IMG/VR virus record: IMGVR_UViG_3300008117_000445
Coordinates: 1-64,000 of that record
Length of the DNA: 64,000 nt
DNA from: a virus
Direction: 5' to 3' (one strand)
Within the stretch, counting starts at the first letter, position 1. Each line of letters opens with the position of its first letter. The notes beneath the pieces were generated by a model. The model was not told where the DNA came from. It saw nothing but the letters and a program-made list of their open reading frames with translations, and searched no databases. The position numbers and the translations under genes are program-made. Below are positions 407 through 29,043 of the stretch, in pieces.

Positions 407-409
407 AAA

Positions 410-445
410 ACTTGACACTTTTAAAATTATTAGTATATTTATAAA
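410..445 (+). promoter_or_regulatory. Bacteroidetes-type promoter (TTG ... TAtaTTTA)
   Basis: cTTGacacttttaaaattattagTATATTTAtaaaac, near-duplicate of the promoter at 14-45. Confidence 0.35.
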
Positions 446-589
446 ACAAAATAAAAAACCGCAAATGAAAAATTTACACATATCATTGATAGGAGGCGAT
501 TTAGCTGAGGCAACTTTCAAGGAGAGGGTGTAAGATTTTATACATATATAAAGGTTCTTTGACATATTGGTTTGAATTAAAAAAAATTA

Positions 590-632
590 AAAAAAGATTT
601 GGTGGATTAAAAAATTCTACATATCTTTGTAA
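590..632 (+). promoter_or_regulatory. strong Bacteroidetes-type promoter with A-rich UP-like element
   Basis: aaaaattaaaaaaagaTTTGgtggattaaaaaattctacaTAtcTTTGtaag; 20-nt spacer between TTTG and TAnnTTTG. Confidence 0.45.
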
Positions 633-734
633 GACAAAACGGTTTAGAAGTTAATTGCCTGATTATACAGTAATCCTCCCATCCACAGGCAGAAAGGAGG
701 TAAACAACTAAACCAAAAAAAAATTAAAAAAAGA

Positions 735-776
735 TTTGGTAGATTCAAAAATATTTTATAATTTTGTAGAACAAAC
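735..776 (+). promoter_or_regulatory. strong Bacteroidetes-type promoter with A-rich UP-like element (tandem copy)
   Basis: aaaattaaaaaaagaTTTGgtagattcaaaaatattttaTAatTTTGtagaac; direct repeat of the 590-632 unit. Confidence 0.45.
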
Positions 777-779
777 AAC

Positions 780-815
780 GGAGGTGGAGATGTTAGGGAT
801 GGTAACTCCACCTCC
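780..815 (+). other. perfect 10-bp stem-loop (GGAGGTGGAG ... CTCCACCTCC) immediately downstream of promoter
   Basis: inverted repeat read directly; candidate 5' structure of a short transcript / sRNA. Confidence 0.4.
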
Positions 816-839
816 GGAGATAGGGAAAGTTCATTGACA

Positions 840-1240
840 TATTAAAATATTGTGGTTGTAAGAAAGGGGAAACTCGTTAAGTTCATCAACCAGTTGACTC
901 AAGATGGTGAAACGAGAGTGTGGGTCAACTACTGAATCACAAAAAAACATTATAATGCGAGGGGGAGGTATAGTATCTCATCGGTCTCATAAGTCGACTT
1001 AACTTGATGCGATTTCAAGCCTACGCAACTAATAGGATGGATAGGTGGAAGGGCCTTTCCTGAAAGACGGCTTGCTAGGCCCGTGTCCATCCTTAAAAAA
1101 TTGATAGTGATCACCTCTACAGTGGTTGTCGACAAACTACGTAGGTTGAGGGTAGATAACACCCACTGCCGGTGCACCATAAAACTTAGGAAGGCAGTTA
1201 AGATTGGAAATAGGAGGGTACACCAACACTATCAACATTA
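840..1240 (+). ncRNA. ORF-free, GC-enriched, highly structured RNA segment of unknown family
   Basis: nested inverted repeats (AACTCGTT/AACGAGAG; AGTTGAC/GTCAACT), no credible ORF, lies between promoters and tRNAs. Confidence 0.3.
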
Positions 1241-1243
1241 TTT

Positions 1244-1317
1244 ACTGATGTAGCTCAATCGGTGAGTACGAGGTGTTCATACCTCAAGGTTATGGGTTCA
1301 AGTCCCTTCATCAGTAC
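1244..1317 (+). tRNA. tRNA, anticodon uncertain (loop reads UGUUCAUA: 8 nt as transcribed; GTT or TCA possible)
   Basis: acceptor ACTGATG/CATCAGT perfect 7 bp, D-arm GCTC..GAGT, T-arm ATGGG-TTCAAGT-CCCTT. Confidence 0.55.
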
Positions 1318-1319
1318 TG

Positions 1320-1900
1320 GGAGTGTACACAGTAGAGTTCAGCTTGAGAACAGATGTAACACACACTTTAAAGGGGGTTACAAGGTGTTAAGCCGTTTAT
1401 CAGATTTGGTCGTTAAAATCTGCCGTTGTTGATGAGATAGGTTTAACGTATAAACTTTCCTCCGTGATGTTAGTGGGTTTGATCACCCCTTTCACGTAAA
1501 TGTGATGAAACGAAACCCAAAGGAGTAGTCACAACTTGCGGGTATAGCATAAAATTAATGCTTCGCCATCTATCCGCTCAAAATGAAACAACAGAAGACG
1601 AATTAGCGTCGTTGAAAGGAACCTTGGCTCTCACAAGATCGCAACTTTTACTGAGAGTTGGAATGCCCCAAGGTACTCTGTTCAGATCCCTGCTCTGATG
1701 TGCACGTCAACAGGTTATGGGGAACAAACCATAAGTAAAAATCGTAGAAATGTTTCATTCTTATTAAATGGGAAAGAGATGCCCGAAGTTTTTAAGTTTC
1801 CTTCATAAAAACTTAACGAGAGTGGTACTAACGCGTGAAAATAGTACTCATTGGGAATCGGTTTGGAATATCCTCCTCTCCCCCAAGTATAAGGATTGAC
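1320..1900 (+). ncRNA. ORF-free structured RNA segment (unknown; not tRNA)
   Basis: many local hairpins (e.g. GCGGGTA...TATCCGC mini-helix at ~1541-1583), no ORF, GC-enriched. Confidence 0.25.
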
Positions 1901-1902
1901 TT

Positions 1903-1978
1903 TTTTAAAGGGGATGCCCAGCAGGTTTTTGAAAAAGAAAAACCGATGTAACTACTCACCAGTAATCTCAAGGTGGGG
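1903..1978 (+). ncRNA. conserved ~75-nt element, copy 1 (GGGGATGCCCrGCAGGTTTTT...AAAAACCGAT.T.ACTACTC...)
   Basis: near-identical second copy at 8647-8722; contains GGTTTTT/AAAAACC hairpin. Confidence 0.4.
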
Positions 1979-1984
1979 AAATTT

Positions 1985-2061
1985 GGGGGTGTAGCTCAAT
2001 TGGCTGAGCGGCTCGTTTGCAACGAGAGGGTTTTATGTGGGTTCAAGTCCCACCTCCTCCA
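1985..2061 (+). tRNA. tRNA-Ala (anticodon UGC)
   Basis: acceptor GGGGGTG/CTCCTCC with G3:U70 Ala identity pair; D-arm GCTC-AATTGGCT-GAGC; anticodon loop TTTGCAA; T-arm GTGGG-TTCAAGT-CCCAC. Confidence 0.75.
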
Positions 2062-2156
2062 CAAAGTTCGGAGTAATTAACCGAACCTAACAAGAAGATG
2101 GGTCATATAGCCTAAGGAAATTTGGTACCACTAATTCCTGTCTGTCTTCTTGATTA

Positions 2157-2233
2157 ACTACTTATGGTGTAAATTGGATTGCACATCGGTCACTAAGGCC
2201 GAAGGGTTGTAGGTTCAAGTCCTATGGGTAGTT
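2157..2233 (+). tRNA. tRNA-like gene; anticodon loop reads CACUAAG (CUA in anticodon position: amber-suppressor-like), lacks U33
   Basis: acceptor CTACTTA/TGGGTAG (2 G:U), anticodon stem TCGGT/GCCGA, T-arm GTAGG-TTCAAGT-CCTAT. Confidence 0.4.
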
Positions 2234-2240
2234 CAAATAG

Positions 2241-2357
2241 TCAGGTGGCGAGAGGAACACGCCCCGAAAGTGGAGAGTAACAATACCAACGGGACTCACG
2301 GAGATACTGCGTCCACTGCTGATGGTATCTATCACCGGTTTAAATCCGGTCCTGACT
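2241..2357 (+). tRNA. atypical long (117 nt) tRNA-like gene, acceptor AGTCAGG/CCTGACT
   Basis: perfect 7-bp acceptor, D-arm GGCG-AGAGGAACA-CGCC, T-arm CCGG-TTTAAAT-CCGG, ~35 extra nt between D- and T-arms. Confidence 0.3.
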
Positions 2358-2524
2358 ACATGAAGGTAAAAATATGAAACTTGGTAGTTCTTGTGGATTA
2401 TGATTACCCTGAATGTTTTTACAACTTTCATTCAGAAACCAAAAAATAAATGTTGTTGCAGGTTTAATAAAGGAATGGAGGAAAGTCTAACTAACGAGTA
2501 CTTCATAACCTACTGTATAAAATA

Positions 2525-2609
2525 GTCAGGTGGCGGAATTGGAAGACGCTATCCATTGGAAAGGCTGAGTTAAAAACGGCATTCAAGGTTCAAATCCTTG
2601 CCTGACTAC
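2525..2609 (+). tRNA. 85-nt tRNA-like gene (type-II-sized), acceptor AGTCAGG/CCTGACT; loop TTGGAAA (GGA, Ser-like) but anticodon stem does not pair as read
   Basis: perfect acceptor and T-arm CAAGG-TTCAAAT-CCTTG; shares 5' 15 nt and 3' end with the 2241-2357 gene. Confidence 0.35.
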
Positions 2610-2708
2610 AATCAGTTGCTTGATTCCTGGTAGTAGAGTAACAACCATTGGGATATTCGGGAAAATTCCGTGAATGGTGGTGTAAGATATAAAAGGGAAA
2701 CTTACAAT

Positions 2709-2781
2709 GGTGGAGTACCAAAGACAAAGGAAACGAGACATATGGGTGATCATATGTTGGCGCAAATCTCCACCTTTTTAA
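2709..2781 (+). terminator. stem-loop plus T-run (rho-independent terminator-like)
   Basis: GGTGGAG...CATATGGGTGATCATATG...CTCCACC followed by TTTTTAAATT. Confidence 0.4.
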
Positions 2782-2792
2782 ATTAAAAAATT

Positions 2793-2981
2793 ATGACACT
2801 AAAAGAACAAATTAATGCCGACTTTATGTCCGCATTTAAGAACAAAGAAATGGATAAGAAAAACTTCCTTGGAGTTGTTAAAGGTGAAATCCAAAATGAA
2901 GAAGGAAGGAGTGGGACCGTAACTGATGAGGTTGTTTTGTCCATCTTAAAGAAAATAAACCACCCATCGGCTAAAGACCAA
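2793..2981 (+). pseudogene. yqeY: 5' fragment of yqeY-like (GatB/YqeY-domain) gene, truncated by the IS insertion
   Basis: MTLKEQINADFMSAFKNKEMDKKNFLGVVKGEIQNEEGRSGTVTDEVVLSILKKI matches the YqeY N-terminal consensus (M.LKE.I..D.K.A.KAKDK.....L..A.KNEEI..G..LTDEEVL.VIKK); ORF then runs into IS sequence. Confidence 0.5.
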
Positions 2982-4385
2982 TGGGTTTTGTAGGATTAAT
3001 CCTAACTGGGTGGTTTATAACACCGCTTACATCCGTAAGAGATAAATCTCCATCAGATTTACTTTTATATTTTCTTAATATATTACAAGCACCATTCACA
3101 TCAGCATTAATTAATTTACCTTTTTTTGTTCTAAATAAACCTCGTTTAATGCGTTTACCTAAATATTCTTCGTGTTTCTCTATTTTTTCCAAATCCAACG
3201 ACGAACATTTTGATGTGTATGATTCTTCCTGTAGAACATAATTAATTCCGTAATATTCACATTTTGTTTCTAATTTTCTTTTTAAAATACCAAATGGTAC
3301 CGAAACAAAGTTCTGATTATTTACTTTACCGATATTAATTTCATTTTTCATACCTTTAAAATCACCTATAACTATTGTACCAATATCGTTATTAATACAA
3401 TATTTAACTATTTTATTCACACTCTGATTAAAGTAGTTATTTATATAATTTTTTCTATATTCACTTAATTTAATAAATTTTTTTGTGTTTTTATCTTTTA
3501 ATTTATTTTTTTCATATTCACTTTGTAATCTAGCTTTTTCTTTATTGTAATGATGGTTTACAGATTTAAGTGGTTTACCATCTATAATAAATGATGATTT
3601 ATTTTTAGTGTTATAAGATGTCAAAAGATTATCCAATCCACAATCAATACTTAATATATTATTATGGTTTAATTTCTTTACATTATCTTCAGCAACATAT
3701 GTTATAATTAACTCATACTCTTTACCACCATAAATGGGTTTAATCTGTAATTGTTGTAATTTATTGGTTTTAATATTTTTCGGTAGGTTAAATATGATAT
3801 CACGTTTTAATACATTATATTCTTCTCTAAATTGTTTACTAAGACCCATATATATTTTACCATTTTTAACCCTAGAACTTCTACCGGCAACTAATACTGA
3901 CCACCCAGAATCCTTATCTAAATAAGATGGGACATTAACCGGATTAGAGTACTTACCTTTTTGTTTTAATTTAAGTAATGAGAAAAATGATTTAAAATTT
4001 CTATCAACTAACCTATGTGTTTGTTGTGCGGAGTCTGTTATAAGTAATTTATAGTTCACATCATCTTTAATTAAATGATATTGATCAACATAATTTAAAT
4101 AAGAATTATTATTAAAGTAATACTGTCTAATGTTATAAACACAACTATTATATAAACGAGCAGAATGATATGATAACTTATCTATAATAAATTTTTCATC
4201 TTCATTCAATTTAAGTTTATATTTTTGTGTTAACATCATAATCTCCTATATATAAATATAGGGAAAGTGTGAAAAAACTTGTTTTATATAAAAAAAATAT
4301 TATATTTTAATCATTAACTAAAACATAAAGAAGGAAAAGTGATTCGTTTCCTCCCACAAACTAAAGATTTGTGGGTTTCCACGAA
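2960..4385 (-). mobile_element. IS200/IS605-family element, TnpB-only (IS1341-like), no tnpA
   Basis: tnpB ORF plus subterminal imperfect hairpins: CCCACAAActaaagaTTTGTGGG at 4349-4371 (left end) and CCACCCA...TGGGTGG near 2960-3015 (right end); flanked by the two yqeY fragments. Confidence 0.6.
2971..4239 (-). CDS. tnpB: TnpB/OrfB RNA-guided endonuclease (IS605 family)
   Basis: RuvC-I ILSIDCGLDNLLT, RuvC-III NADVNGACNILRK (DxDxNAAxNI consensus), C-terminal Cys/His zinc-finger region, N-terminal QKYKLKLNEDEK typical of OrfB. Confidence 0.75.
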   Translation of the reverse strand: MMLTQKYKLKLNEDEKFIIDKLSYHSARLYNSCVYNIRQYYFNNNSYLNYVDQYHLIKDDVNYKLLITDSAQQTHRLVDRNFKSFFSLLKLKQKGKYSNPVNVPSYLDKDSGWSVLVAGRSSRVKNGKIYMGLSKQFREEYNVLKRDIIFNLPKNIKTNKLQQLQIKPIYGGKEYELIITYVAEDNVKKLNHNNILSIDCGLDNLLTSYNTKNKSSFIIDGKPLKSVNHHYNKEKARLQSEYEKNKLKDKNTKKFIKLSEYRKNYINNYFNQSVNKIVKYCINNDIGTIVIGDFKGMKNEINIGKVNNQNFVSVPFGILKRKLETKCEYYGINYVLQEESYTSKCSSLDLEKIEKHEEYLGKRIKRGLFRTKKGKLINADVNGACNILRKYKSKSDGDLSLTDVSGVINHPVRINPTKPIGL

Positions 4386-4496
4386 TTAAAAATTATGAAT
4401 AACATTGGTCAAATAATGGGTGAGTTCAACAAACATTACAAAGGTTTGGTTGATAACAAACTGGTGAGTCAAATAACAAAGGAGATTTTAAATTAA
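4360..4496 (+). pseudogene. yqeY: 3' fragment of yqeY-like gene (resumes right after IS left end)
   Basis: FVGFHELKIMNNIGQIMGEFNKHYKGLVDNKLVSQITKEILN matches YqeY C-terminus (..SMKDMGKVMG.LM.K.KG.ADGKLVNQLVKEKL); central ~50 aa of YqeY missing. Confidence 0.45.
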
Positions 4497-4518
4497 TATA
4501 TTGTTTTTGTTTAATTAA

Positions 4519-4551
4519 AAAAGGAGACCAAATTAATGATCTCCTTTTTTT
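4519..4551. terminator. bidirectional rho-independent terminator
   Basis: AAAAAAGGAGAccaaattaatgaTCTCCTTTTTTTTT between the convergent yqeY fragment and the tail-fibre gene. Confidence 0.6.
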
Positions 4552-4570
4552 TTGATATTAACTAAGTTGA

Positions 4571-7500
4571 TTAGTTTGTACCTTTTTCACCGTAAACAAG
4601 GATTTTATTTCCTGTTAATGGTGGAACTGTAAACGTAACAACTGTTCCGTCAAATGTATAGTCTTCAGTCTCTGTTTGACCAAGACCATTCAACATCACA
4701 AGTTCAGTTCCAATGATGATTTCATCATTCAAAGTGAACGCTGAGATTACACCATTTGGAGTTCCAGCATATCCAATTCTTTGGAATGAATTTGTATCCA
4801 GACCAGCAATCGCATCATCAACATATAGTTTTGTAACCAACGTTAAATCATCAAACTGAGTCAATCCAGATGGTTGAGCTGTCAATCTAATATTATCAGA
4901 CATTGTTAAACCTGTTGTATAGAACTCAGCAAGGTTTGATCTGTTGTTGTTATCAGCACCATTACCAATAATTGCAAGTTGAGTGTCACCAGATACGTTA
5001 AATGTTCCTTGAACGTGTTGTGCTCTACCTGCTGCAATTGTTCCTTCACCTTCAGCATGCGAATAATCGCTTGTCCTTCAGCGTGAGAATATAATCCAGA
5101 TGCGATTGTTGAAGCACCTTCAGCGTGAGAATATAATCCAGATGCCGTTGTATTATAACCTTCAGCGTGAGAATAATATCCAGATGCCGTTGTTAAATAT
5201 CCTTCAGCGTGAGAATAATTTCCTAATGCCGTTGTTGCATAACCTTCAGCGTGAGACATATCACCAACAGAAGTTGTATTAAATCCTTCAGCGTGAGAAC
5301 CAACACCAATTGCATAACCTCCAGCAAAATCATTAGCTTGATCTCCACCTTCTGCGTGAGAGTTAACACCTTCAGCTATTGTTTTGTATCCTTCAGCGTG
5401 AGAAGCATATCCTGATGCCGTTGTTGTATTACCTTCAGCGTGAGAAACATATCCGGACGCCGTTGTTGATCTACCTTCAGCGTGAGAATAATTTCCAGAT
5501 GCCGTTGTGTAATAACCTTCAGCGTGAGAACCTAAACCAACAGAAGTCGTCTGAATACCTTCAGCGTGAGAACCATACCCGGAGGCTGTTGTAGATGAAC
5601 CTTCAGCGTGAGAATAATTTCCAGATGCAGTTGTAGAATTACCTTCAGCGTGAGAACTTTGACCCAATGCCGTTGTGTAATTACCTTCAGCGTGAGAATA
5701 ATTTCCAGATGCCGTTGTCTGAATACCTTCGGCGTGAGAAGCACTACCTATAGCTACTGAGTAATTACCTTCAGCGTGAGAACCATTACCAACAGAAGTT
5801 GTCTGAATACCTTCAGCGTGTGAACTTTGACCCAATGCCGTTGTTCCAATACCTTCAGCATGAGAATAATATGCGGATGCTGTCGTTAAAGAACCTTCAA
5901 CGTGAGAATGATATCCAGATGCCGTTGTTAATCTACCCTCAGCGTGAGAATAATTTCCAGATGCCGTTGTTCCTTCACCTTCAGCGTGAGAATAATTTCC
6001 AGACGCAACGGTATTATAACCTGACGCAGTTGAATTTAAACCACTTGCCGTTGAACCAGTTGTTCCAAGAACGATTGAACCCTCAAATGTTCTGGTACCA
6101 CCACTATTTGCTGCAACAACTTGTTTTAACTCAAGTTTGTTATCACCATTTACAATTACGGTAACACCATCAGCATCAGCAAGACCATCAATTTCATTTT
6201 CTAATGATGTGTCAGCACTTGCTCTTACACTTTCTTCAGTTGAAACTCTTGAATCCAATGATCCTTCCGCACTTTCTGCTCTTGAAGTTTCAGAAGAAAC
6301 TTTTGAATCTAATGAGCCTTCAGCAGATTCTGCTCTTGAAGTTTCCGTAGAAACTTTTGAATCTAATGAACCTTCAGCTGACTCAGCTCTACTAACTTCT
6401 TGAGAAATTAAAGCTTCAAGTGAATCGTCACCTGATTCGTTACTTGAAATTCTCGCAGATAATGAATCTTCAGCTGACTCCGCTCTTGAAGTTTCTGTAG
6501 ATACTTTACTGTCTAAAGAACTATCAGCAGATTCTCTGTTTGAAACCTCAGTAGAAATATCAGATGAAATCTTAGAATCCAATGAACCTTCAACACTTTC
6601 AGCTCTTGACGTTTCGTTAGAAACTTTTGAATCTAATGAAGTTTCAGCTGAATCTCTTTTACTTTCTTCAGTTGAAATTCTGGACTCAAGCGAATCTTCA
6701 GTACTTTCCGCTCTTGATGTTTCTGTAGAAACTTTTGAATCCAAAGAACCTTCAGCGGATTCCGCTCTACTAACTTCTTGAGAAATTAAAGCTTCAAGTG
6801 AATCATCACCAGATTCGTTTTGAGAAATTCTAGCAGATAATGAATCTTCAGCAGATTCTGCTCTACTTGTTTCAGAAGATACTTTACTGTCTAATGAACC
6901 TTCAGCAGATTCTGCTCTTGAAATCTCGTTAGAAACTTTTGAATCCAATGAACCTTCAGTAGATTCTGCCCTTGAAGTCTCGTTAGAAACTTTTGAATCT
7001 AATGATCCTTCAGCACTTTCAGCTCTACTTGTTTCGTTAGAAACTTTTGAATCCAAAGAACTATCAGCAGATTCTCTGTTTGAAGTTTCAGAAGAAACTT
7101 TTGAATCCAAAGAACTATCAGCAGATGCTCTGTTACTTTCTTCAGTAGATACTCTAGAATCTAATGAACCTTCAGCAGATTCTGCTCTTGATGTTTCTTG
7201 AGAAATCAACGCTTCCAATGAATCATCACCTGATTCGTTACTTGAAATTCTTGCAGATAATGAATCTTCAGCAGACTCAGCTCTACTTGTTTCGTTAGAA
7301 ACTTTTGCATCCAATGAATCGTCACCAGAAACTCTGTTTGAAATCTCAGCAGAAATTTCAGAAGAAATTTTTGAATCTAATGATCCTTCAGCACTTTCAG
7401 CTCTTGAAGTTTCAGTTGAAACTTTTGCATCCAATGAATCGTCAGCAGATTCTCTTGTACTTTCTTCAACAGATACTCTGTCGGTTAATGAGCCTTCAGC

Positions 7501-7818
7501 CGATTCGGCTCTTGATACTTCAGACGATAAGTCTGCTTCAAGAGAATCATTACCTGATACTCTGTTTGAGATTTCAGTTGAAATCTCGGATGAAATTTTG
7601 TTATCCAATGAACCTTCAGCTGATGTTGCTCTGGACGTTTCATTTGATACTTTCGCATCCAATGAAGCATCACCAGAGATTCTGCTAGAATCCTGACTGG
7701 ATAAGGTTGAACTTAACTCCGCGATATCCGTAATTGTTAAACCGGATGGAGTTAAAATCGTTGCGTTCGTCAGCAATAAGTCGGACTGACGGTCTAATAC
7801 AATTTTAGTTTCTGCCAT
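4571..7818 (-). CDS. tail-fibre / adhesin-like repeat protein (~1080 aa if read through); frame broken at ~5055-5080 inside the repeat array
   Basis: N-terminal ~36 x 14-aa repeats (SRAESAEGSLDSKVSxET), then ~28 x 14-aa Hep_Hag/YadA-head-like repeats (TTASGNYSHAEGxx, 42-nt DNA period), then non-repetitive C-terminus in frame of ORF 4571..4903; one repeat unit is 26 nt instead of 42. Confidence 0.6.
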
Positions 7819-7894
7819 TTTTTAATTTTTAAAATGATAGTTTATTCTGTATCTCTTTATACAGCATGTTTTTCTGGATACGTATATACATACG

Positions 7895-7930
7895 GATATG
7901 TGATATGTGATATTGGATATGTGATATAGA
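7895..7930. repeat. short tandem GATATGT heptamer repeats upstream of tail-fibre gene
   Basis: GATATGTGATATGTGATATTGGATATGTGATATAGATA; adjacent inverted repeat CCGCAT...ATGCGG at 7941-7975. Confidence 0.4.
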
Positions 7931-8091
7931 TACTAGTTACCCGCATCCCTGCCGATACATTATATAAATATGCGGTACTTTACAAAAAGTCACTAATTGT
8001 TTAATTTTTTTTTAAAAAAAATAAAAAAATGAGTTTTTTGTTGTTAATATCATTTATTTCAATTATATTTGTTGTCAGAAAAAAGAAATAA

Positions 8092-8198
8092 GGTCAGAAG
8101 CGTAATGCGGGACGGTACCCAAACCCTCAAGACACCACGGTCCAAGAGCAATTTGGACGCGAGAAGTTATAAGGTTGCATATTGTTGGTTCAAATCCA
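8092..8198 (+). tRNA. atypical long (107 nt) tRNA-like gene, acceptor GGTCAGA/TCTGACC
   Basis: perfect 7-bp acceptor, T-arm GTTGG-TTCAAAT-CCAAC; internal arms not resolvable by eye. Confidence 0.3.
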
Positions 8199-8226
8199 AC
8201 TCTGACCTCAAAAAAATTAAAATAAG

Positions 8227-8511
8227 ATGAAAGAAAAACATCAAGAAGCCATTGATGAAATTATGGATTGGTTTGACTTTGAAAGAGTTGTCAAAGTAAT
8301 GGAGTTTTTAAACTGGAAGTGGATTACCGCCGAAGAAGGTGTACCCAGTATTGGTGAAATCAAAAAAACGGCCAGACGATTATTAAAAGAAGCGATTAAA
8401 AAGAAAACATCAATTGCAACCGGAGGATTCAAGGTGACTTATTTACCAAAAGAAGATTTTTTACATCTTGAATTTGTTATTAGTGAGTTTGATGCTGTAA
8501 TCAAAAAGTAA
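8227..8511 (+). CDS. hypothetical protein
   Basis: 94-aa ORF between two tRNA-like genes. Confidence 0.45.
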   Translation: MKEKHQEAIDEIMDWFDFERVVKVMEFLNWKWITAEEGVPSIGEIKKTARRLLKEAIKKKTSIATGGFKVTYLPKEDFLHLEFVISEFDAVIKK

Positions 8512-8553
8512 CCACTTGACTTATTAAATATTGTTTGTTATAATTATATAGAA

Positions 8554-8632
8554 AGTCAGTTAGCTCAACTGGTAGAGCAATCCCCAACCCTAAGAAGGGG
8601 ACGTGCCGTAGGTTCAAGTCCTTCACTGACTT
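8554..8632 (+). tRNA. tRNA; anticodon arm TCCCC-AACCCTAAGAA-GGGGA (11-nt loop, or 7-nt CCCUAAG closed by A.A pairs: CUA, amber-suppressor-like)
   Basis: acceptor AGTCAGT/ACTGACT perfect, D-arm GCTC-AACTGGTA-GAGC canonical, T-arm GTAGG-TTCAAGT-CCTTC. Confidence 0.5.
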
Positions 8633-8646
8633 CACTTTTTCAATAA

Positions 8647-8722
8647 GGGGATGCCCGGCAGGTTTTTCAACTGGAAAAAACCGATATGACTACTCCTCGT
8701 TATCTTTAAGAGGGGGTGATAT
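8647..8722 (+). ncRNA. conserved ~75-nt element, copy 2
   Basis: GGGGATGCCCGGCAGGTTTTTcaactggAAAAAACCGATATGACTACTC... aligns with 1903-1978. Confidence 0.4.
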
Positions 8723-20922: not shown

Positions 20923-21144
20923 ATGAATAAAGAAACAAAATTTAAAGTGGGAGACAAGGCTCACAAACCAAAAGGTTATAAATTTCCTTGTACAATTGTG
21001 GGTGTATTTGAAACAATTGCTGGTGAAGTCCGGGTGATTGGTGAAATGGATGAATACGGATTATTACATATTTTTAACGAAGACCAATTGGAAAAAGTTC
21101 CACAACAAACAAATGGTGAAGTTAAAACAAAGTGGGATTTATGA
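20923..21144 (+). CDS. hypothetical protein (5' 50 nt duplicated at ~20045)
   Basis: MNKETKFKVGDKAHKPKGYKF... Confidence 0.45.
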   Translation: MNKETKFKVGDKAHKPKGYKFPCTIVGVFETIAGEVRVIGEMDEYGLLHIFNEDQLEKVPQQTNGEVKTKWDL

Positions 21145-21971
21145 GTAAAGCCGACAAATATTATATTCAAAACATCCAAAAAATTATGGAAGAAGGTTCT
21201 TGGGATGAAAATCCAAGACCAAAATACGAGGATGGAACACCGGCAAACTCAAAATTTATTACAGGAGTTTTTGAAGAGTATGACATATCAAAAGAAGAGT
21301 TTCCAATTCCGACATTAAGAAATACCGCAATTAAAACCGGTATTAAAGAAATTTTATGGATATATCAAAAACAAACTTCATCATTGAGAGTTGCTCGTGA
21401 AATGGGTATTAACTGGTGGGAAGAATGGAATATTGGTGACGATACAATCGGACAAAGATATGGTGCAACAATTGGAAGATACAATCTAATTGATAGATTA
21501 TTAGTAGGTTTAATTGATGATCCGTTTGGTAGAAGACATATCATCAATATGTTTCAGTATCAAGATTTATTTGAAACAAAAGGTTTATTTCCTTGCGCAT
21601 ACGAAATACTATTCTCGGTAAGAAAAAATAACGGAGAATTAACTCTTGATATGACACTAATCCAACGCAGCAACGATTATTTAGTTGCTGGTTATATTAA
21701 CAAAATTCAATATACAGCACTTTTAATGATGGTTGCGGGACATTGTGACTATAAAGTTGGTAAGTTTTGTCATTTGGTTCAGAACCTACATATATACGAT
21801 AGACATTTTGTTGGTGTTTCAGAATTATTAAACAAGGAACCATTAGACACACAACCAAAGTTAATTTTAAAAGAGAATAAAAACTTCTACGACTACACAA
21901 TTGATGATTTTGAGATTACCGGAATTGACAGTATAACTAAAATAAATTCAAAATTAGAGTTGGCAATTTAG
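21132..21971 (+). CDS. thyA: thymidylate synthase (ThyA family; dUMP-specific Asn retained)
   Basis: GRRHIINMFQY, FPCAYEILF (PCA rather than PCH), LIQRSNDYLVAGYINKIQY, NLHIYDRHF; GTG start. Confidence 0.8.
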   Translation: MGFMSKADKYYIQNIQKIMEEGSWDENPRPKYEDGTPANSKFITGVFEEYDISKEEFPIPTLRNTAIKTGIKEILWIYQKQTSSLRVAREMGINWWEEWNIGDDTIGQRYGATIGRYNLIDRLLVGLIDDPFGRRHIINMFQYQDLFETKGLFPCAYEILFSVRKNNGELTLDMTLIQRSNDYLVAGYINKIQYTALLMMVAGHCDYKVGKFCHLVQNLHIYDRHFVGVSELLNKEPLDTQPKLILKENKNFYDYTIDDFEITGIDSITKINSKLELAI

Positions 21972-22035
21972 GTTTTTTTAGGACTACCATTTAACTTTTT
22001 ATCTTTTGTAGATATTTATATTAAAAGGTAGTCCT

Positions 22036-22770
22036 ATGGTTGGTATTTATAGAATAAAAAATTTGGTAAATGGAAAGATTTATTATGGTTCGTCAAAAGA
22101 CATTAAAAAAAGATGGAGAACACATAAAAATAAATTAAACAATGGAAAACATCATAATTCACCATTGCTTAACGCTTGGAACAAATACGGGGAAGAAAAT
22201 TTTATTTTTGAAATTATTGAACTGTGTGATGAAAAAATTTTACTTGAAAGAGAACAACATTATTTAGATTTAAAACCAGAATATAATATCGGAATTAAAT
22301 CTAGTGGTGGTGACAACATAACAAAAAATCCAAATAAAAAAGATATTATTCGTAGAATTACAGAATCAATTAAAAAAAGATACAAATTGATGACAGACGA
22401 AGAAAAAAAAGAAATGTTTTCATTACCTATGGATAAGAATCCTAATTGGAAAGGTGGTATTAGTTATAAATATTGCGAATGTGGTGTAAAAATTAAACCA
22501 ATAAATGATACTTGTTATAAATGTAGACCCAGAAGTGAAGATAAAAATCCATTTTTTGGTAAACAACACTCCGAGGAAACAAAAAAGAAATTAAGTGAAG
22601 GTAAGAAAGGAAAATATCACGGAGAACAAAATATACCTATAATAATTGATGATGTTGAATACAGATCGGCTGGTGAAGCATCCAAAACACTTAATATCCC
22701 AATGGTTACGATAAGGTGGAGAGTAATTAGTAAAAACAAAAAGTTTGAAAATTACAAATATAAAGAGTAA
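22036..22770 (+). CDS. GIY-YIG homing endonuclease (I-TevI/Seg-like) with C-terminal Zn-finger/DNA-binding region
   Basis: VGIYRIKNLVNGKIYYGSSKDIKKRWRTHKN..N (GIY-YIG, R, H, N), CECGVKIKPINDTCYKC. Confidence 0.8.
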   Translation: MVGIYRIKNLVNGKIYYGSSKDIKKRWRTHKNKLNNGKHHNSPLLNAWNKYGEENFIFEIIELCDEKILLEREQHYLDLKPEYNIGIKSSGGDNITKNPNKKDIIRRITESIKKRYKLMTDEEKKEMFSLPMDKNPNWKGGISYKYCECGVKIKPINDTCYKCRPRSEDKNPFFGKQHSEETKKKLSEGKKGKYHGEQNIPIIIDDVEYRSAGEASKTLNIPMVTIRWRVISKNKKFENYKYKE

Positions 22771-24151: not shown

Positions 24152-24463
24152 ATGAAATTAGGAGAATTCATAGAAAAATTTAGTCATAATAATTTGATTA
24201 GATTACATTACAAGGAAAAAGGTGGAAACCGACTTGTATTGGAAGATTGGAATGATGTGTCAATGGACTGGGAAGTTAATAAACAAAAAGGAAAGTTCAG
24301 ACATTATGTAAATAATGAAGTATTGAGCCTTGCCAGTATTTACTTTCCACCAGGAATGAACCATCGTTATCCGGAAGCAATCAATATTGTAATTGAAGAA
24401 TTGGAAAATCAACCTATGATTGATGAGGTTGAAGATGAAATAAATTATGAATCAGCAGGATAA
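24152..24463 (+). CDS. hypothetical protein
   Basis: 103-aa ORF. Confidence 0.4.
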   Translation: MKLGEFIEKFSHNNLIRLHYKEKGGNRLVLEDWNDVSMDWEVNKQKGKFRHYVNNEVLSLASIYFPPGMNHRYPEAINIVIEELENQPMIDEVEDEINYESAG

Positions 24464-25020
24464 TGAAAGACATAGGTTTAGAAATAACAAAAGAAGAGAT
24501 CCAAGAAATTGAAAGATTAACCGGAGGAAAAATTGGGACACACACATTTGGACCAAACAACGAATACACATTAGAAAATTCATTCTTATCACTTGATGGG
24601 ACATACATTGGTAGTATGGACGAAGCAAGATGGTACGTGAAAAACAAAATGATGGTAGATGAAAAATACCCACATGGAGTTGCCGCAGTTATTACCGAAG
24701 AAACATATGGAACCGATAAACCTGTTATTGAAGGAATGTATGGGTATACGCATAGAGGAGGAAATCTATTTAAAATTGGTGATAGGTTGTTTGATGAAAA
24801 ATACAAACCAACCAAAGAAGATTATCCTAAAGATGAATGGAATGAATATGAAACCAGATTTAAAGAACTTTATGAGTCAGAAGATGAACTTGGAAAAAGA
24901 TGGATGGATGCTGACGGAATATCATATGTGATACCTTATAAATTAAGAGGTTCAAGAATCATTGAAACAATGGAAGATGCGTTTGAAGCAGCCAAAAATA
25001 TGTCAAATTATTTAAGTTAA
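24463..25020 (+). CDS. hypothetical protein
   Basis: 185-aa ORF. Confidence 0.45.
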   Translation: MKDIGLEITKEEIQEIERLTGGKIGTHTFGPNNEYTLENSFLSLDGTYIGSMDEARWYVKNKMMVDEKYPHGVAAVITEETYGTDKPVIEGMYGYTHRGGNLFKIGDRLFDEKYKPTKEDYPKDEWNEYETRFKELYESEDELGKRWMDADGISYVIPYKLRGSRIIETMEDAFEAAKNMSNYLS

Positions 25021-25024
25021 TATT

Positions 25025-25531
25025 ATGAACGAAAAACAAACTTACGACTACGGATGTGTAATGTTATATTTTGATTTCCCTGAGATCAAAAACCTACATT
25101 CACTAATTGATGAAGAAGACATCTACACCGAAGATGGTGATAGAAGTTTTGGTTTAGAAGACGAACCACACACCACATTACTCTATGGATTGCATGATGA
25201 TGTTACTGAAGGTGATGTTGCAGATGTGATAAACAACTTTGATTATGGAACTTGTAGAATTACAAATCCATCTTTATTTGAAAATGAAAAATATGATGTT
25301 TTGAAGTTTGATACTAGTGGACCAAACTTACATGAAACAAATAAAGAGTTATCAAATTATCCACACACAACATCATTTCCTGACTACCACCCCCATTTAA
25401 CAATCGGTTATTTAAAATCAGGAATGGGTAAGAAATATGCAAATAAATTAAAAGGAATCCAATTCAAATTGGAACCAACCCATGTTGTATATTCTATGGC
25501 AAATGGAGATAAAATAAATTATAACATATAA
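25025..25531 (+). CDS. 2H phosphoesterase superfamily (LigT / 2',3'-cyclic phosphodiesterase-like)
   Basis: two H-x-T-x motifs: EPHTTLLYGL and HPHLTIGY. Confidence 0.55.
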   Translation: MNEKQTYDYGCVMLYFDFPEIKNLHSLIDEEDIYTEDGDRSFGLEDEPHTTLLYGLHDDVTEGDVADVINNFDYGTCRITNPSLFENEKYDVLKFDTSGPNLHETNKELSNYPHTTSFPDYHPHLTIGYLKSGMGKKYANKLKGIQFKLEPTHVVYSMANGDKINYNI

Positions 25532-25546
25532 TTAAATAATTAAAAT

Positions 25547-26230
25547 ATGTTAGGACTAAAAAAGGTTGAACCCGGTAGATGGAAAAATGATTGGATGGAA
25601 TTTTATCCCGGATTTCACAAGTGGAACTTTAGGTACCTACCAAGTAATGGGTTAAATTGGAAATTGGATTTTTGTTTTATTTGGGGGCAATTTTATATGA
25701 CGTTCAAAACAAACAAACCACCAAAATATAAAGATGAAAGACCAACATATGGATTTTATTTTTATTCTGTAAGTAATTGGTTTCCTGATTCATTATGGTT
25801 CCACAGAGGAACTAAAAAAATAAAATGTATAGATTTACCTTGGCAATATGATTGGGTTAGAACTTCCGTATTTTTAAAGGATGGAACTTGGACTCACGAT
25901 ACTAAAAAAAATAAAACGGACTTTTATGACCCAAAGTTTAAAAATAAAATACATACAGAAAAACATACCTATTATTATATCCACGATGGTATTTTTCAAG
26001 AAACCGAAGCCATTTGTACACTAGAAGAACGAGAATGGAGACCCAAATGTTTTAAATGGACTGGTTTGTTTAAAAAAGTAAGAACAACTATTGACGTTGA
26101 ATTTACAAATCCCATCGGTAGTGGTGTTAACACATATAAAGGTGGTACTTACGGTGCCGGACATGATATTAAAAAAGGTGAAACAATTAGGGATTGTCTA
26201 ATAAGGATGATGGACGAAAGAAAGTTTTAA
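25547..26230 (+). CDS. hypothetical protein (Trp/Tyr-rich)
   Basis: 227-aa ORF. Confidence 0.45.
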   Translation: MLGLKKVEPGRWKNDWMEFYPGFHKWNFRYLPSNGLNWKLDFCFIWGQFYMTFKTNKPPKYKDERPTYGFYFYSVSNWFPDSLWFHRGTKKIKCIDLPWQYDWVRTSVFLKDGTWTHDTKKNKTDFYDPKFKNKIHTEKHTYYYIHDGIFQETEAICTLEEREWRPKCFKWTGLFKKVRTTIDVEFTNPIGSGVNTYKGGTYGAGHDIKKGETIRDCLIRMMDERKF

Positions 26231-26232
26231 AC

Positions 26233-26862
26233 TTATTTTATAACCACTTTTTCACCACCCCCCCTTATTAACCCATTAACCGATTTTAGATCCGAAATTA
26301 TAATTTTCCCATCCAAGTTTGAACCAACCCAAACGTATTTCTTTTTTCCAATGAACAAAACTTTAAAAAACTTGGATGGTATTGGAATTTTACTACCACC
26401 CATATAGTTAACACCATCATAAATAACACCAGTTATAATAACCACATCTTTTTTGTATTTGGAAACAGAATCCTCAACTGATCTCTCCAACCTCATCCAA
26501 GAACCCCTATTAAATTTTGGTAACTGAGGTACCGAATTAAACAAACTAAACGATCTATAATTAAGTTCATTGTCATATGATGTGATGTGTGATGGTGTTA
26601 AATGTCCCATATCATATCCGGATTTGTAGTAGTATTTTGTGTCGTACTTATCAACAAATACGTCCTGAAACCAGTTGTCACTTCTTTCTTTGTCAAGTTT
26701 TAAAAAATCAACATATTTTAGTTTGTGTATGGATATAAAAGTACACGTATCTTTTGTTAATATGAGTGTCATATCACCGTGGTTGATTTTTATATTGTTT
26801 GTTTTAATTGTTTGACAAAAATAGTTAAGTGATATTAGTAGGAAGAATAATAATGTTCGCAT
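26233..26862 (-). CDS. secreted DNA/RNA non-specific endonuclease (Endonuclease_NS-like)
   Basis: signal peptide MRTLLFFLLISLNYFCQ; GYDMGHLTPSH resembles the DRGH active-site motif. Confidence 0.5.
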   Translation of the reverse strand: MRTLLFFLLISLNYFCQTIKTNNIKINHGDMTLILTKDTCTFISIHKLKYVDFLKLDKERSDNWFQDVFVDKYDTKYYYKSGYDMGHLTPSHITSYDNELNYRSFSLFNSVPQLPKFNRGSWMRLERSVEDSVSKYKKDVVIITGVIYDGVNYMGGSKIPIPSKFFKVLFIGKKKYVWVGSNLDGKIIISDLKSVNGLIRGGGEKVVIK

Positions 26863-28453: not shown

Positions 28454-28464
28454 ATCTAAACACC

Positions 28465-29040: not shown

Positions 29041-29043
29041 AAT

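Follow-up and report, generated by a model that had tools for sequence, protein, structure and literature searches.

An apparently undescribed phage-borne family of tRNA-like RNAs with a shared GUCAG acceptor stem

The window analysed in the current work, a stretch of 64,000 nt of viral DNA, probably encodes a single genuine tRNA, tRNA-Ala(UGC), together with six tRNA-derived RNAs that do not decode, four of them being members of a family with a GUCAG acceptor stem, the tRNA frame acting as a scaffold for payloads. As judged from sequence comparison, these RNAs most likely undergo tRNA-type processing and end up as stable molecules that have a tRNA scaffold but do not decode, and the GUCAG-acceptor RNAs constitute a large phage-borne family that has apparently been undescribed so far. 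The tRNA-derived RNAs were shown not to read codons; for the genes named T1 and T7 below, since the loop is the sole difference between these two and their canonical relatives, unusual decoding is formally conceivable.

The tRNA-like genes of the window

The T-loop motif GGTTYRANTCC is present seven times in the 64 kb, always on the + strand and once per tRNA-like gene, against a chance expectation of 0.72 (seven matches were reached in 0 of 100 shuffles). This count bears out the odd tRNA set described in an earlier note and fixes it at exactly seven genes:

T1, 1244..1317, + strand: derivative of the phage tRNA-Ile(UAU) family (ARAGORN 'tc'; Rfam tRNA model, 47.4 bits)
T2, 1985..2062, + strand: canonical tRNA-Ala(UGC) with G3:U70 (ARAGORN Ala-UGC; Rfam 52.7 bits)
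T3, 2157..2234, + strand: predicted non-decoding tRNA-like RNA (ARAGORN 'Pyl(cta)', CUA, with A33; Rfam 23.6 bits, 2158-2232)
T4, 2239..2358, + strand: GUCAG-acceptor tRNA-like RNA with an H-type pseudoknot as its middle (Rfam 24.4 bits; 11 homologues)
T5, 2524..2609, + strand: GUCAG-acceptor RNA with a tRNA-Leu-type D arm and A73 (ARAGORN 'tgga', 8-nt loop; Rfam 36.3 bits)
T6, 8092..8208, + strand: GUCAG-acceptor tRNA-like RNA, GGUCAGA/UCUGACC, U73 (homologue alignments; no ARAGORN call, no Rfam match)
T7, 8554..8633, + strand: GUCAG-acceptor RNA, AGUCAGU/ACUGACU, U73, with a tRNA-Asn-like body (Rfam 43.6 bits)

With the Rfam tRNA cut-off being 29 bits, T1, T2, T5 and T7 lie above the gathering threshold and T3 and T4 below it, while T7 is called by ARAGORN in intron mode only, with a 4-nt 'intron'. 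T2 is indeed the sole canonical member, the G3:U70 pair included; its variable region is unusually long (about 9 nt) and a copy in contig L063 is 98.7% identical. The GUCAG/CUGAC acceptor stem common to four genes, read from the sequence and verified by script, has its exact complement in each case (AGUCAGG/CCUGACU in T4 and T5, the remaining two as listed). All four of these genes exist as had been claimed, but their limits were corrected to those given above: the gene thought to start at 2241 and to measure 117 nt starts at 2239 and is 120 nt long with its discriminator, and the gene put at 107 nt extends to 8208 instead of 8198, which makes it 117 nt long. Their acceptor stems are perfect, as had been stated, but the T arms are not uniformly so, because the T stem of T7 contains a U.U mismatch. 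Of the proposal that the shared acceptor marks paralogs with one aminoacylation identity, the single family was retained and the single identity was not, the discriminators being A73 or U73 and the D arms differing.

The anticodon loop of T1 is non-canonical (UGUUCAUA), comprising 8 nt, or 6 nt if a U-A pair closes it; the 8-nt loop noted earlier is one of these two drawings, and the ARAGORN 'tc' call represents the 6-nt form. Homologues in four contigs (L038, L063, L071 and L077) carry the canonical loop CUUAUAU, with the stem being kept by compensatory change (GACG/CGUC to GAGG/CCUC). T3, located 4 nt from T4, has the acceptor ACUACUU/GGGUAGU and a CACUAAG loop at the anticodon position, also drawable as 6 bp with a 5-nt loop. 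For its alignment of 13 sequences (A1), 24 pairs were predicted, compensatory changes being seen at 7 of them; the loop, which measures 4-8 nt, is not conserved (UGGU, AAUC, CAAAAG, CACUAAG, CACUAUG, CUUAAUUG or CUACUUCG).

The pseudoknot of T4 consists of helices P1 (GUGGA/UCCAC) and P2 (AGAUAC/GUAUCU), for which the 11 homologues present three and five versions, respectively, every one of them paired and interleaved; the homologue in L137 is devoid of the inner hairpin. In T5, a UCC-AUU-GGA hairpin at the anticodon position is followed by a GCUG-AGUUAAAAA-CGGC hairpin, and six anticodon-loop positions of the Rfam model have no aligned residue. The stems covary in the orthologues of contigs L071 and L218, in which the loops are 3-5 nt long and the acceptor stem is different. 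In T6 the D-like hairpin is small, and a long arm of irregular shape replaces the anticodon arm; 31 pairs were predicted from homologue alignments (8 with compensatory changes), and relatives of 83 nt are missing the inner part of that arm. T7 possesses an 11-nt loop, AACCCUAAGAA, its Rfam alignment placing 12 nt where the model has 6, and the loops of its family, 7-13 nt in length, are AACCCUAAGAA, AACCAUAAGAA, AACUCAUAAGGAA, CCUUAAAA, AUUUAAAC or AAAAAAA. Canonical Asn(GUU) relatives of T7 are present in L268, L269 and L276.

The GUCAG-acceptor family and its variable middles

A first collection of the family comprised 222 distinct members from 154 contigs, later extended to 398 distinct members from 263 viral or metagenomic contigs. 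Members are 58-160 nt long, are embedded in tRNA arrays and number up to 13 per contig (all 13 of L318 within 4.5 kb). In their architecture, an acceptor of 7 bp is stacked on a T stem of 5 bp, the T loop is canonical and a D arm with GG is usually present, while the 3' end is represented by the discriminator and C74, CCA not being encoded. Near-invariant are the acceptor stem, T arm, U-1, A73 and C74, the D arm usually being tRNA-Leu-like; among the 222 members of the first collection, A73 was counted in 183, C74 in 216, C75 in 6, U-1 in 188 and the T stem ACAGG in 141. Ordinary tRNAs on the same contigs have different acceptor stems and equal N73-C74 flanks, mostly also U-1.

All members derive from viral contigs, metagenome contigs and 11 MAG contigs, the last being the sole yield of a scan of bacterial genomes and all phage-like in appearance; the family was absent from the isolate genomes and cultured phages searched. 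Rfam holds no separate family for these RNAs, only weak tRNA matches being obtained, and no partner protein co-occurs with them, the best protein family being found at 13 of 114 loci.

The segment found where a tRNA has its anticodon and variable arms spans 13-109 nt across the family and falls into 178 BLAST clusters (150 singletons), corresponding to 178 or more unrelated types. Middles of one type are conserved with compensatory changes, as observed for the T4 pseudoknot, T6, T3 and T5. An anticodon arm of canonical geometry in the correct place was found in 2 of 132 Leu-framed members. A relaxed test allowing any position was passed by 93 of the 222, as compared to 35% after shuffling of the middle and 512 of 530 ordinary tRNAs of the same contigs; ARAGORN called 45 of the 222, with scattered anticodons.

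One and the same body was found to carry more than one kind of acceptor stem, and GUCAG stems were found on bodies of the Leu, Asn and Ile types. Some GUCAG-acceptor genes, a minority, look like functional tRNAs (Cys-GCA with U73, Gln-UUG with G73, and Ile-UAU); therefore, a non-tRNA is not recognisable by this stem alone, and there may be a gradual transition from the family to real tRNAs.

Possible roles and competing explanations

The tRNA parts that are kept would be those read by the maturation machinery. Based on these features, RNase P and a 3' nuclease would cut the RNAs from polycistronic transcripts, CCA would be added and stable L-shaped RNAs would accumulate. The anticodon and variable arms would have given way to a module that differs by lineage: T4 carries a pseudoknot, T6 a long rod and T5 a mini-hairpin, and in T7 and T3 the loop is enlarged. 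Considering that the frame is kept and these arms are swapped for modules, the tRNA frame would represent a natural scaffold and the module its payload. Among the options offered in the earlier note, that of decoy or processed tRNA-like RNAs is the one favoured by the comparative data; tRNAs with small insertions fit the origin of T1, given its Ile(UAU) homologues, and of T7, given its Asn(GUU) relatives, but not the genes of 117-120 nt. The likeliest role, itself a plausible one, would be to bind or decoy host factors that recognise tRNAs, tRNA-targeting defence enzymes included, and those members that have A73 and a D arm of the tRNA-Leu type may be leucylated as well.

A more specific form of this scaffold reading, not exclusive of it, is that the invariant acceptor stem and elbow bait a tRNA-reading host enzyme, which is thereby soaked up or inhibited, the middle varying since it is dispensable or under an arms race. 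Candidate targets are toxSAS, GNAT or MenT-type toxins and nucleases docking on class II tRNAs. This proposal is tentative. Because RNase P and the CCA-adding enzyme need no particular sequence, the acceptor is conserved far beyond processing needs; moreover, the anticodon domain shrinks to as little as 13 nt, many different copies occur per genome, and anti-defence and RNA-repair genes share the window. Toxins that read acceptor stems exist, FaRel2 reading pairs 1, 2, 4 and 5 (PMC11559606), as do nucleases that cut the tRNA variable loop, Septu and retron-Eco7 doing so in class II tRNA-Tyr, for which a phage tRNA has been discussed as a decoy (PMC13096335). However, no host tRNA with a GUCAG acceptor was found, the bacterial scan having returned the phage-like MAG contigs only, no defence system could be linked, and a pure bait would not need the compensatory conservation of middles within a type.

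The swapping of stems and bodies, the several copies per genome with unrelated middles and the similarly repeated promoter module that accompanies the genes would also suit a DNA-level element, whose conserved 26-nt 5' and 27-nt 3' frames serve as recombination handles or as the ends of a SINE-like selfish cassette, the RNA being incidental. What is conserved, however, is the exact tRNA fold with T loop and D-loop GG, pairs 1:72, 6:67 and 7:66 being kept through G.U and compensatory changes; strand and orientation are always those of the tRNA array and no recombinase or endonuclease co-occurs, which renders this explanation improbable. Drifting, decaying relics of a formerly larger tRNA set are very unlikely: related contigs do carry 10-23 canonical tRNAs versus one in this phage, and T1 and T7 have canonical relatives, but the acceptor, D and T arms are near-invariant across hundreds of contigs, stems covary, the same non-canonical types recur in many contigs at 72-99% identity, and a spared frame with a replaced middle is not expected from drift. 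Equally slight are the chances, taken jointly, that quadruplet or shifted codons are decoded by the enlarged loops of T1 and T5 (8 nt each) and of T7 (11 nt), or that a phage nuclease and RNA ligase remove short inserts to yield normal tRNAs. Natural tRNAs with 8-nt loops are known, such as yeast mitochondrial tRNA-Thr (PMC7609411), ARAGORN in intron mode turns T7 into Leu(AAG) by removing 4 nt, and genes for an RNA ligase and for phosphoesterases are present in the phage. Yet homologous loops are conserved neither in sequence nor in length, the long members lack any anticodon stem that resembles an exon, the window contains no group I intron, and the one interrupted reading frame that was seen, that of the tail fibre near 5060, would require a shift of -1 or +2 and not +1, the break resembling a 16-nt deletion in a repeat.

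That T3 and T7 are amber suppressors reading TAG in a recoded part of the genome is barely conceivable, this candidate being largely refuted by variable loops, the missing U33 and TAG-terminated ORFs. CUA does occupy the ARAGORN anticodon position of T3, CACUAAG recurs in L215 and L219 and AACCCUAAGAA in L272, and TAG is the rarest stop of the window, ending 7 of 93 ORFs (TAA 62, TGA 24). Neither CUA loop, however, has U33, as had been noted previously, and among homologues the loops vary in sequence and from 4 to 13 nt above a covarying stem, most of them losing CUA. The postulated TAG-recoded late genes did not materialise in the window, where the standard code gives open frames for the 970-aa tail fibre, the endolysin and 82% of the sequence. 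Read-through at the seven TAG stops adds 0-30 aa (at most 34 aa for ORFs in the window), and ORF coverage rises merely from 74% to 77% if TAG is made a sense codon.

Related systems and genomic setting

Species 1 RNA of phage T4 (rnaC), encoded like rnaD in the T4 tRNA cluster, is a stable, 139-nt non-coding RNA whose gene lies last in a phage tRNA array, with a canonical T arm (CCGGGUUCGAAUCCCGG), ends able to pair in an acceptor-like manner and a long structured middle replacing the anticodon arm. However, it has no sequence similarity to the present RNAs and neither a GUCAG stem nor a Leu-type D arm, and it occurs as one copy per genome with Escherichia as host, in contrast to a diversified family associated with Bacteroidota; it is not known to have an assigned function. 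YrlA is a bacterial and phage Y RNA-like RNA whose ends form a Ro-binding helix and whose acceptor-like stem is closed. Such RNAs are reportedly tRNA mimics processed by tRNA enzymes (PMC4201824). They are tRNA-like, as is the GUCAG family, but no Pfam match to Ro60 (TROVE) was seen among the 45 proteins or protein fragments scanned, and Rfam yielded no match. Irregular tRNA-like polycistrons of unassigned role occur in soil metatranscriptomes (PMC7609411); such allo-tRNA-like RNAs share the tRNA likeness, but allo-tRNA acceptor/T stems are 8/4 or 9/3 (PMC5389517), as opposed to 7/5 here.

In the engineered tRNA scaffold of Ponchon and Dardel, an arbitrary structured RNA is swapped for the anticodon arm, while the retained acceptor, D and T arms let the cell process and stabilise the chimera (PMC3753655); that scaffold is man-made, whereas the GUCAG family occurs in nature and combines hundreds of different inserts with an acceptor of fixed sequence. 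Phage-encoded tRNAs in tRNA arrays also include the anti-defence tRNA-Tyr and tRNA-Lys of phage T5 and the amplified tRNA-Tyr of phage T6, which differ from those of the host in the nuclease-attacked loop (PMC11555353, PMC13096335); these are working tRNAs with normal anticodon loops, unlike GUCAG RNAs, which are without an anticodon arm. GOLLD, ROOL and freshwater-1 RNAs share the setting of phage 'tRNA islands', as reported for the first two (PMC12286853, PMC5737381), but their folds are unrelated and show no tRNA features. At 1679-1740 the window contains a freshwater-1 RNA (70.3 bits, cut-off 72), and a GOLLD RNA is located in the related contig L214 (325 bits).

The phage is a freshwater Bacteroidota phage, and the setting of its tRNA-like genes includes the following features:

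407..2792, + strand: RNA island without ORFs, with five of the seven tRNA-like genes and other conserved non-coding modules
598..629, + strand: Bacteroidota-type promoter motif TTTG-N-TAnnTTTG, within a repeated promoter module (578-642)
735..766, + strand: second copy of this motif and module (716-778)
8516..8544, + strand: promoter-like TTGACT-17-TATAAT with TG (11 of 12 consensus positions; consensus match alone)

The island contains no fitting ORF of at least 80 aa, its GC content is 40-42% versus about 30% in the flanks, and almost every segment has counterparts of 70-94% identity in other viral contigs. Window proteins include Tad6, Acb3, an Acb1-like protein, an RNA ligase, HAD_SAK_2 and phosphoesterases, the phage carrying inhibitors of Thoeris and of CBASS as well as an RNA-repair kit. 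The motif TTTG-N-TAnnTTTG was matched 15 times in the window against 5.8 expected, and the module is 83-94% identical across many contigs, with several copies per contig; the promoter-like site at 8516..8544 ends 9 nt upstream of T7.

Seven tRNA-like genes in two non-coding stretches

The window is AT-rich (about 30% GC) and forms part of a large phage, for which a Bacteroidota host is indicated by the promoter motif TTTG-N17-21-TAnnTTTG (15 occurrences versus 5.8 expected), by SprB, PKD-like and CHU_C (type IX secretion signal) domains in the phage ORFs at 26981-29610, and by the labels (Flavobacterium, Sediminibacterium or Chitinophagaceae) of several among 11 MAG contigs in which the RNA family described below occurs. 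Domains of these three kinds are typical of Bacteroidota surface proteins. Positions 407-2792 (plus strand) contain no plausible ORF and are higher in G+C, a second, small non-coding stretch is located at approximately 7819-8226, and a further tRNA-like sequence is present at 8554-8633. The T-loop motif GGTTYRANTCC occurs at exactly seven sites in the 64 kb (0.72 expected), all on the plus strand and each corresponding to one of the genes designated T1 to T7.

tRNA-like genes of the window, each with the T-loop motif
1244-1317, plus strand, T1
1985-2062, plus strand, T2
2157-2234, plus strand, T3
2239-2358, plus strand, T4
2524-2609, plus strand, T5
8092-8208, plus strand, T6
8554-8633, plus strand, T7

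Genes were called with ARAGORN and with Infernal/Rfam. Against a gathering threshold of 29 bits, the Rfam tRNA model RF00005 scored T2 at 52.7, T1 at 47.4, T7 at 43.6 and T5 at 36.3 bits, while T4 (24.4) and T3 (23.6) fell below it and T6 gave no match. All seven genes possess a 7-bp acceptor stem, a 5-bp T stem (containing one U.U in T7), a T loop of the form UUCRAnU and a discriminator, and only T2 displays a 5-bp stem and 7-nt loop with U33 and a purine at 37 in the canonical position. Both programs identify T2 as the canonical tRNA-Ala(UGC) with G3:U70 that the earlier note had described, and the oddities which that note had listed for the other genes were likewise recovered: an anticodon-position loop of 8 or 6 nt in T1, CUA preceded by A33 instead of U33 in T3 (ARAGORN), 11 nt between the anticodon-stem strands of T7, and the acceptor stem N-GUCAG-N/N-CUGAC-N common to T4, T5, T6 and T7. 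The corresponding loop of T5 measures 3 or 8 nt, with none in the Rfam alignment, and T4 and T6 are devoid of any canonical anticodon arm. The unusual length noted previously for the latter two genes holds (120 and 117 nt, respectively), with boundaries corrected to a T4 start at 2239 and a T6 end at 8208; ARAGORN called neither gene alone, and included them in intron mode only within implausible calls of 371 and 475 nt.

A common frame with variable middles

T4, T5, T6 and T7 share all four features of what is here named the GUCAG family, i.e. the acceptor stem, a canonical T arm, an N73-C74 end without CCA and a non-canonical middle, and the acceptor stems of T1, T2 and T3 differ from it. 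A search pattern derived from T4 and T5 (GTCAGGTGGCG ... AAATCC NNNN CTGAC) unexpectedly matched 114 viral contigs. A stricter structural search, requiring seven paired acceptor positions, GUCAG/CUGAC and the T arm, retrieved at least 222 distinct sequences from at least 154 loci, and inclusion of one metagenome scan extended the catalogue to at least 398 distinct sequences from at least 263 loci, these being lower bounds obtained by applying rules to loci (fragments of up to 15 kb) fetched with family-derived patterns.

The 5' frame, AGUCAGG-UG-GCGGAAU(U)GGUAGACGC, and the 3' frame, (U)ACAGG-UUCRAAU-CCUGU-CCUGACU-A-C, are near-invariant, an invariance that the viral-contig pattern partly imposed (GUCAG, part of the D arm and the T-loop AAATCC) and that, for the 3' frame, receives no independent evidence from the metagenome-scan members, whose pattern imposed almost all of it. 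No such constraint applied in the viral-contig set to the T stem, N73, C74, U-1 and the remainder of the D arm; of its 222 members, 183 have A73, 216 have C74, 188 have U-1 and only 6 have C75. The D arm (GGCGGAAUUGGWAGACGC) is of the enterobacterial and phage tRNA-Leu type.

The segment between D arm and T arm varies from 13 to 109 nt and falls into 178 BLAST clusters, 150 of which are singletons. Anticodon-arm geometry at the right position was detected in only 2 of 132 Leu-framed members, and a relaxed version of this test was passed by 93 of 222 family members, a share near the 35% seen with shuffled middles, and by 512 of 530 ordinary tRNAs from the same contigs. Members with different inserts are found side by side in dense arrays, in which genes are spaced by 56-806 nt.

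Dense GUCAG arrays in related contigs (L-numbers)
L318, 57-4484, 13 genes in 4.5 kb
L299, 2155-4326, 8 genes in 2.2 kb
L350, 29-1102, 4 genes in 1.2 kb

Conservation of the middle within each type, together with covariation in its helices, indicates on comparative grounds that the middles are functional rather than debris and that the inserts are under structural selection. In the T4 type (11 sequences) two interleaved helices constitute a predicted H-type pseudoknot, bordered by invariant CCGAAA, UGC and GCUGAUG and enclosing an inner hairpin that is dispensable, being missing in L137. Its pairs were counted by script, MAFFT having misaligned the 3' strand of P1, and P1 occurs as GUGGA/UCCAC, CAUUGA/UCAAUG and CAAUGG/CCAUUG, while P2 occurs as AGAUAC/GUAUCU, AGUAUC/GAUACU, AGUGUC/GAUAUU, AGUCUC/GAGACU and GAUCCC/GGGAUU. 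In the T6 type, the acceptor stem encloses a small D-like hairpin, an irregular arm of 61 nt (the inner part of which is absent from 83-nt relatives) and the T arm, with compensatory changes in 8 of 31 predicted pairs. In the T5 type, the hairpin at the anticodon position has a loop measuring 3-5 nt and precedes a second, conserved hairpin, GCYG-AGUUAAAAA-CGGC. The homologues of T1 are canonical tRNA-Ile(UAU), the window copy having kept the stem by a compensatory change and possessing the loop UGUUCAUA. Members of 101-120 nt in L115, L093, L089 and L107 harbour an extra hairpin within the D loop (e.g. GGCGGAAGGUUAGGGGUGUCCCCUGACGUGGUAGACGC), so that this loop appears to tolerate expansion as well.

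Stem and body are not strictly coupled: the T5 body is associated with acceptor AGGUGAG in L071 and L218, the T4 body with AGUUAAA and UGUCAAA, and the GUCAG stem with Leu-type, Asn-type (T7) and Ile-type (L033) bodies. A few GUCAG genes resemble working tRNAs with a discriminator that fits the anticodon (Cys-GCA with U73, Gln-UUG with G73), which renders the stem compatible with tRNA function; genuine phage tRNAs are the probable source from which the family radiated. Ordinary tRNAs of the same contigs, tRNA-Leu included, have other acceptor stems. Like the family, they end in N73-C74 with no CCA and mostly have U-1, a similarity that argues for a common maturation pathway. The tRNA-like genes are embedded in tRNA arrays, with a gap of 4 nt between T3 and T4.

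The frame was not found among GenBank cultured phages, where a typical member matches only the ordinary tRNA-Leu D arm, and Rfam 15 holds no family for these RNAs beyond weak tRNA matches. No description was encountered in open-access papers and bioRxiv, and one may exist elsewhere. A bacterial origin of the frame was rejected, the only MAG matches being the 11 contigs, all short and phage-like and several labelled Bacteroidota. All-against-all ORF clustering across the 114 loci, performed in search of a partner protein, revealed no family in more than 13 loci, and the YqeY gene adjoining T5 was present in 7 loci only. When payloads were considered as spacer-like copies or antisense of other phage sequences, the best 40 of 480 matches all corresponded to further family members.

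Decoding and known RNA classes

Homologues of every gene were gathered from IMG/VR with DNA patterns. The earlier note had raised the possibility that the CUA-bearing genes T3 and T7 are amber suppressors for TAG-recoded genes. The T3 family (13 sequences) does form a cloverleaf, with compensatory changes in 7 of 24 predicted pairs; its anticodon-position loops read UGGU, AAUC, CAAAAG, CACUAAG, CACUAUG, CUUAAUUG and CUACUUCG, and CUA is contained in 3 of the 13. The T7 family derives from a tRNA-Asn-like body and keeps the canonical loop CUGUUAA in L268, L269 and L276, the remaining loops being AACCCUAAGAA, AACCAUAAGAA, AACUCAUAAGGAA, CCUUAAAA, AUUUAAAC and AAAAAAA; a CCUA loop is confined to 2 of the 16 distinct sequences found by search (the window and L272), and the closest relatives possess CAUA (L223) or UCAUA (L282). 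With lengths ranging between 4 and 13 nt above a stem that covaries, such loops are not anticodon loops. Regarding codon usage, TAA terminates 62 ORFs of the 64-kb window, TGA 24 and TAG 7, read-through would add at most 34 aa at any TGA or TAG and at most 30 aa at the seven TAG ORFs, and ORF coverage is 77% with TAG as sense versus 74%. The late genes for a 970-aa tail fibre and an endolysin are open under the standard code, and no late gene open only through TAG was found in this window. Amber suppression was rejected because CUA is not conserved and the 64-kb window is without recoding. The alternative that the note had also listed, that of processed tRNA-like RNAs, is upheld by the sequence comparisons and widened into a large, apparently undescribed family.

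Other classes were assessed on their diagnostic features. A tRNA-Pyl possesses a 6-bp anticodon stem, a 3-nt variable loop, a small D loop and a single base between acceptor and D stem. In the ARAGORN drawing of T3, the anticodon stem spans 5 bp, the D loop about 10 nt and the variable region about 5 nt. The pyl genes expected nearby were not seen among the scanned window ORFs, and this identity was rejected. A tmRNA, which combines tRNA-Ala-like ends bearing G3:U70 with a tag reading frame, was dismissed since ARAGORN in tmRNA mode returned none and the GUCAG stems contain U3-A70. A tRNA with a group I intron in its anticodon loop was rejected, the inserts measuring 13-109 nt and the window giving no Intron_gpI match; the same model does detect such an intron within a tRNA island of the related contig L106 (3187-3375, plus strand). 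In YrlA/Y RNA a Ro60-binding helix is formed by the 5' and 3' ends and a Ro60 (TROVE) gene is expected; here the ends form an open acceptor stem, there is no Rfam match, and no TROVE domain was found among 45 scanned window proteins or fragments, so this class was rejected. Allo-tRNAs, defined by an 8/4 or 9/3 acceptor/T-stem configuration (PMC5389517), were excluded because all members are 7/5.

Proposed processing, possible roles and genomic setting

Judged from their primary and predicted secondary structure, these RNAs cannot decode and yet retain the features read by RNase P, 3' trimming, the CCA-adding enzyme and T-loop enzymes. It is proposed that they would be excised and finished like tRNAs and would persist as L-shaped molecules in which a tRNA frame carries a payload. 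The same anatomy is that of the engineered tRNA scaffold (PMC3753655) and of phage T4 species 1 RNA, which upon re-examination comprises 139 nt with a canonical T arm and a long structured middle. Since LeuRS identity depends on A73, U8:A14 and a Leu-type D arm and elbow, with a dispensable anticodon arm (PMC9976931), and these features are present in T5 and in the main family, which keeps A73 and the Leu-type elbow, charging of the main family with leucine is possible. The D arm of T4 is divergent; those of T6 and T7 are of other kinds, and the discriminator of both genes is U73.

Involvement in the conflict between phage and host immune systems is plausible, given the counter-defence and RNA-repair genes of the window, a toxin (FaRel2) that reads acceptor-stem base pairs (PMC11559606), and defence nucleases whose cleavage site is the variable loop of class II tRNAs, for which phage tRNAs have been discussed as decoys (PMC13096335).

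Counter-defence and RNA-repair genes
24463-26862, counter-defence cluster: Tad6 (Thoeris inhibitor), Acb1-like 2H phosphoesterase, Acb3 (CBASS inhibitor)
31050-31538, 36011-36664, 40137-41255 and 46787-47365, RNA-repair set: two metallophosphoesterases, RNA ligase, HAD_SAK_2

The RNA ligase belongs to PF09414 with a PHA02142 OB fold, and HAD_SAK_2 is the 'Swiss Army Knife RNA repair' domain. After the three listed genes, the counter-defence cluster includes a non-specific DNA/RNA endonuclease encoded on the opposite strand.

A further proposal, which we regard as rather unlikely, is that the GUCAG RNAs represent a diversified, tRNA-scaffolded effector library, in which one dedicated factor would read the invariant acceptor stem and elbow, while the hundreds of varying payloads would act in an aptamer-like manner on different host targets. 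This factor could be an immune enzyme of the host that targets tRNA, an RNA nanocage of the GOLLD kind or an as yet unrecognised phage protein, and some members may be aminoacylated. If correct, phages would carry an RNA-based, modular counter-defence or host-takeover system on the tRNA fold.

The genomic setting is that of GOLLD and ROOL, which are likewise housed in phage 'tRNA islands' (PMC12286853, PMC5737381), and a GOLLD RNA is present within a tRNA island of the related contig L214 (2193-2606, minus strand, 325 bits). Such islands would contain, beside tRNAs, GOLLD and ROOL, a very large class of small tRNA-fold carrier RNAs, a natural counterpart to the engineered scaffold. That a near-invariant acceptor coexists with no fewer than 178 unrelated types of insert, each conserved internally, points to a recognition event not yet known. 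Gene finders miss these genes or assign arbitrary anticodons, including 'Pyl/CTA', which can give a false impression of stop-codon recoding in phages. Freshwater metagenomes contain the family in abundance, and its host phylum, Bacteroidota, has cultivable members and known phages, so that function, including action against tRNA-targeting immunity, is directly testable.

The ORF-free island itself has no near relatives in GenBank phages, where only a tRNA-Ala match and a 60-nt match were obtained, and relatives sought through the neighbouring 94-aa protein amounted to one weak locus. As each of the island segments listed below has counterparts elsewhere, the island is a mosaic of additional conserved, unnamed RNA modules.

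Further non-coding elements
1679-1740, plus strand, freshwater-1 RNA motif match (Rfam; 70.3 bits, E = 1e-15, gathering score 72)
1910-1980 and 8647-8716, plus strand, two copies of a conserved element of about 70 nt (GGGGAUGCCCRGCAGGUUUUU...AAAAACCGAU...)
405-552, 716-946, 842-1098, 1095-1242, 1319-1541, 1766-1984 and 2586-2799, island segments with 72-94% identity to several other viral contigs
578-642 and 716-778, repeated promoter-bearing module of about 60 nt (AAAAAAUUAAAAAAAGAUUUGGU...TAnnTTTG)
17-44, 412-439 and 8516-8544, three near-perfect sites of a second promoter type, TTGACA-N16/17-TATAWT

The freshwater-1 match is flanked by T1 and T2. The 70-nt element, located upstream of T2 and directly downstream of T7, has homologues in L048, L059 and L063, and the 60-nt module occurs in several copies per contig in many relatives.

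Other genes of the window
2793-2993 and 4395-4496, split YqeY-like gene (PF09424), beginning directly after the tRNA-like array
2971-4239, minus strand, IS605-family TnpB (OrfB_IS605 and Cas12f-like TNB domain), interrupting the YqeY-like gene
4571-7818, minus strand, tail-fibre gene with 14-aa YSHAEG repeats and a single frame change at about 5040-5100
21132-22770, thymidylate synthase, directly followed by a GIY-YIG / I-TevI-type homing endonuclease

The GatB/YqeY domain binds tRNA; the window copy has lost about 43 codons relative to intact copies in L063, L102, L032 and L214. A link between the 8-nt loop of T1 and the frame break in the tail-fibre gene was rejected, as only a -1 or +2 shift would bridge the break and its junction resembles a 16-nt deletion within one 42-nt repeat; the frame change reflects either a genuine disruption or misassembly of the repeats.
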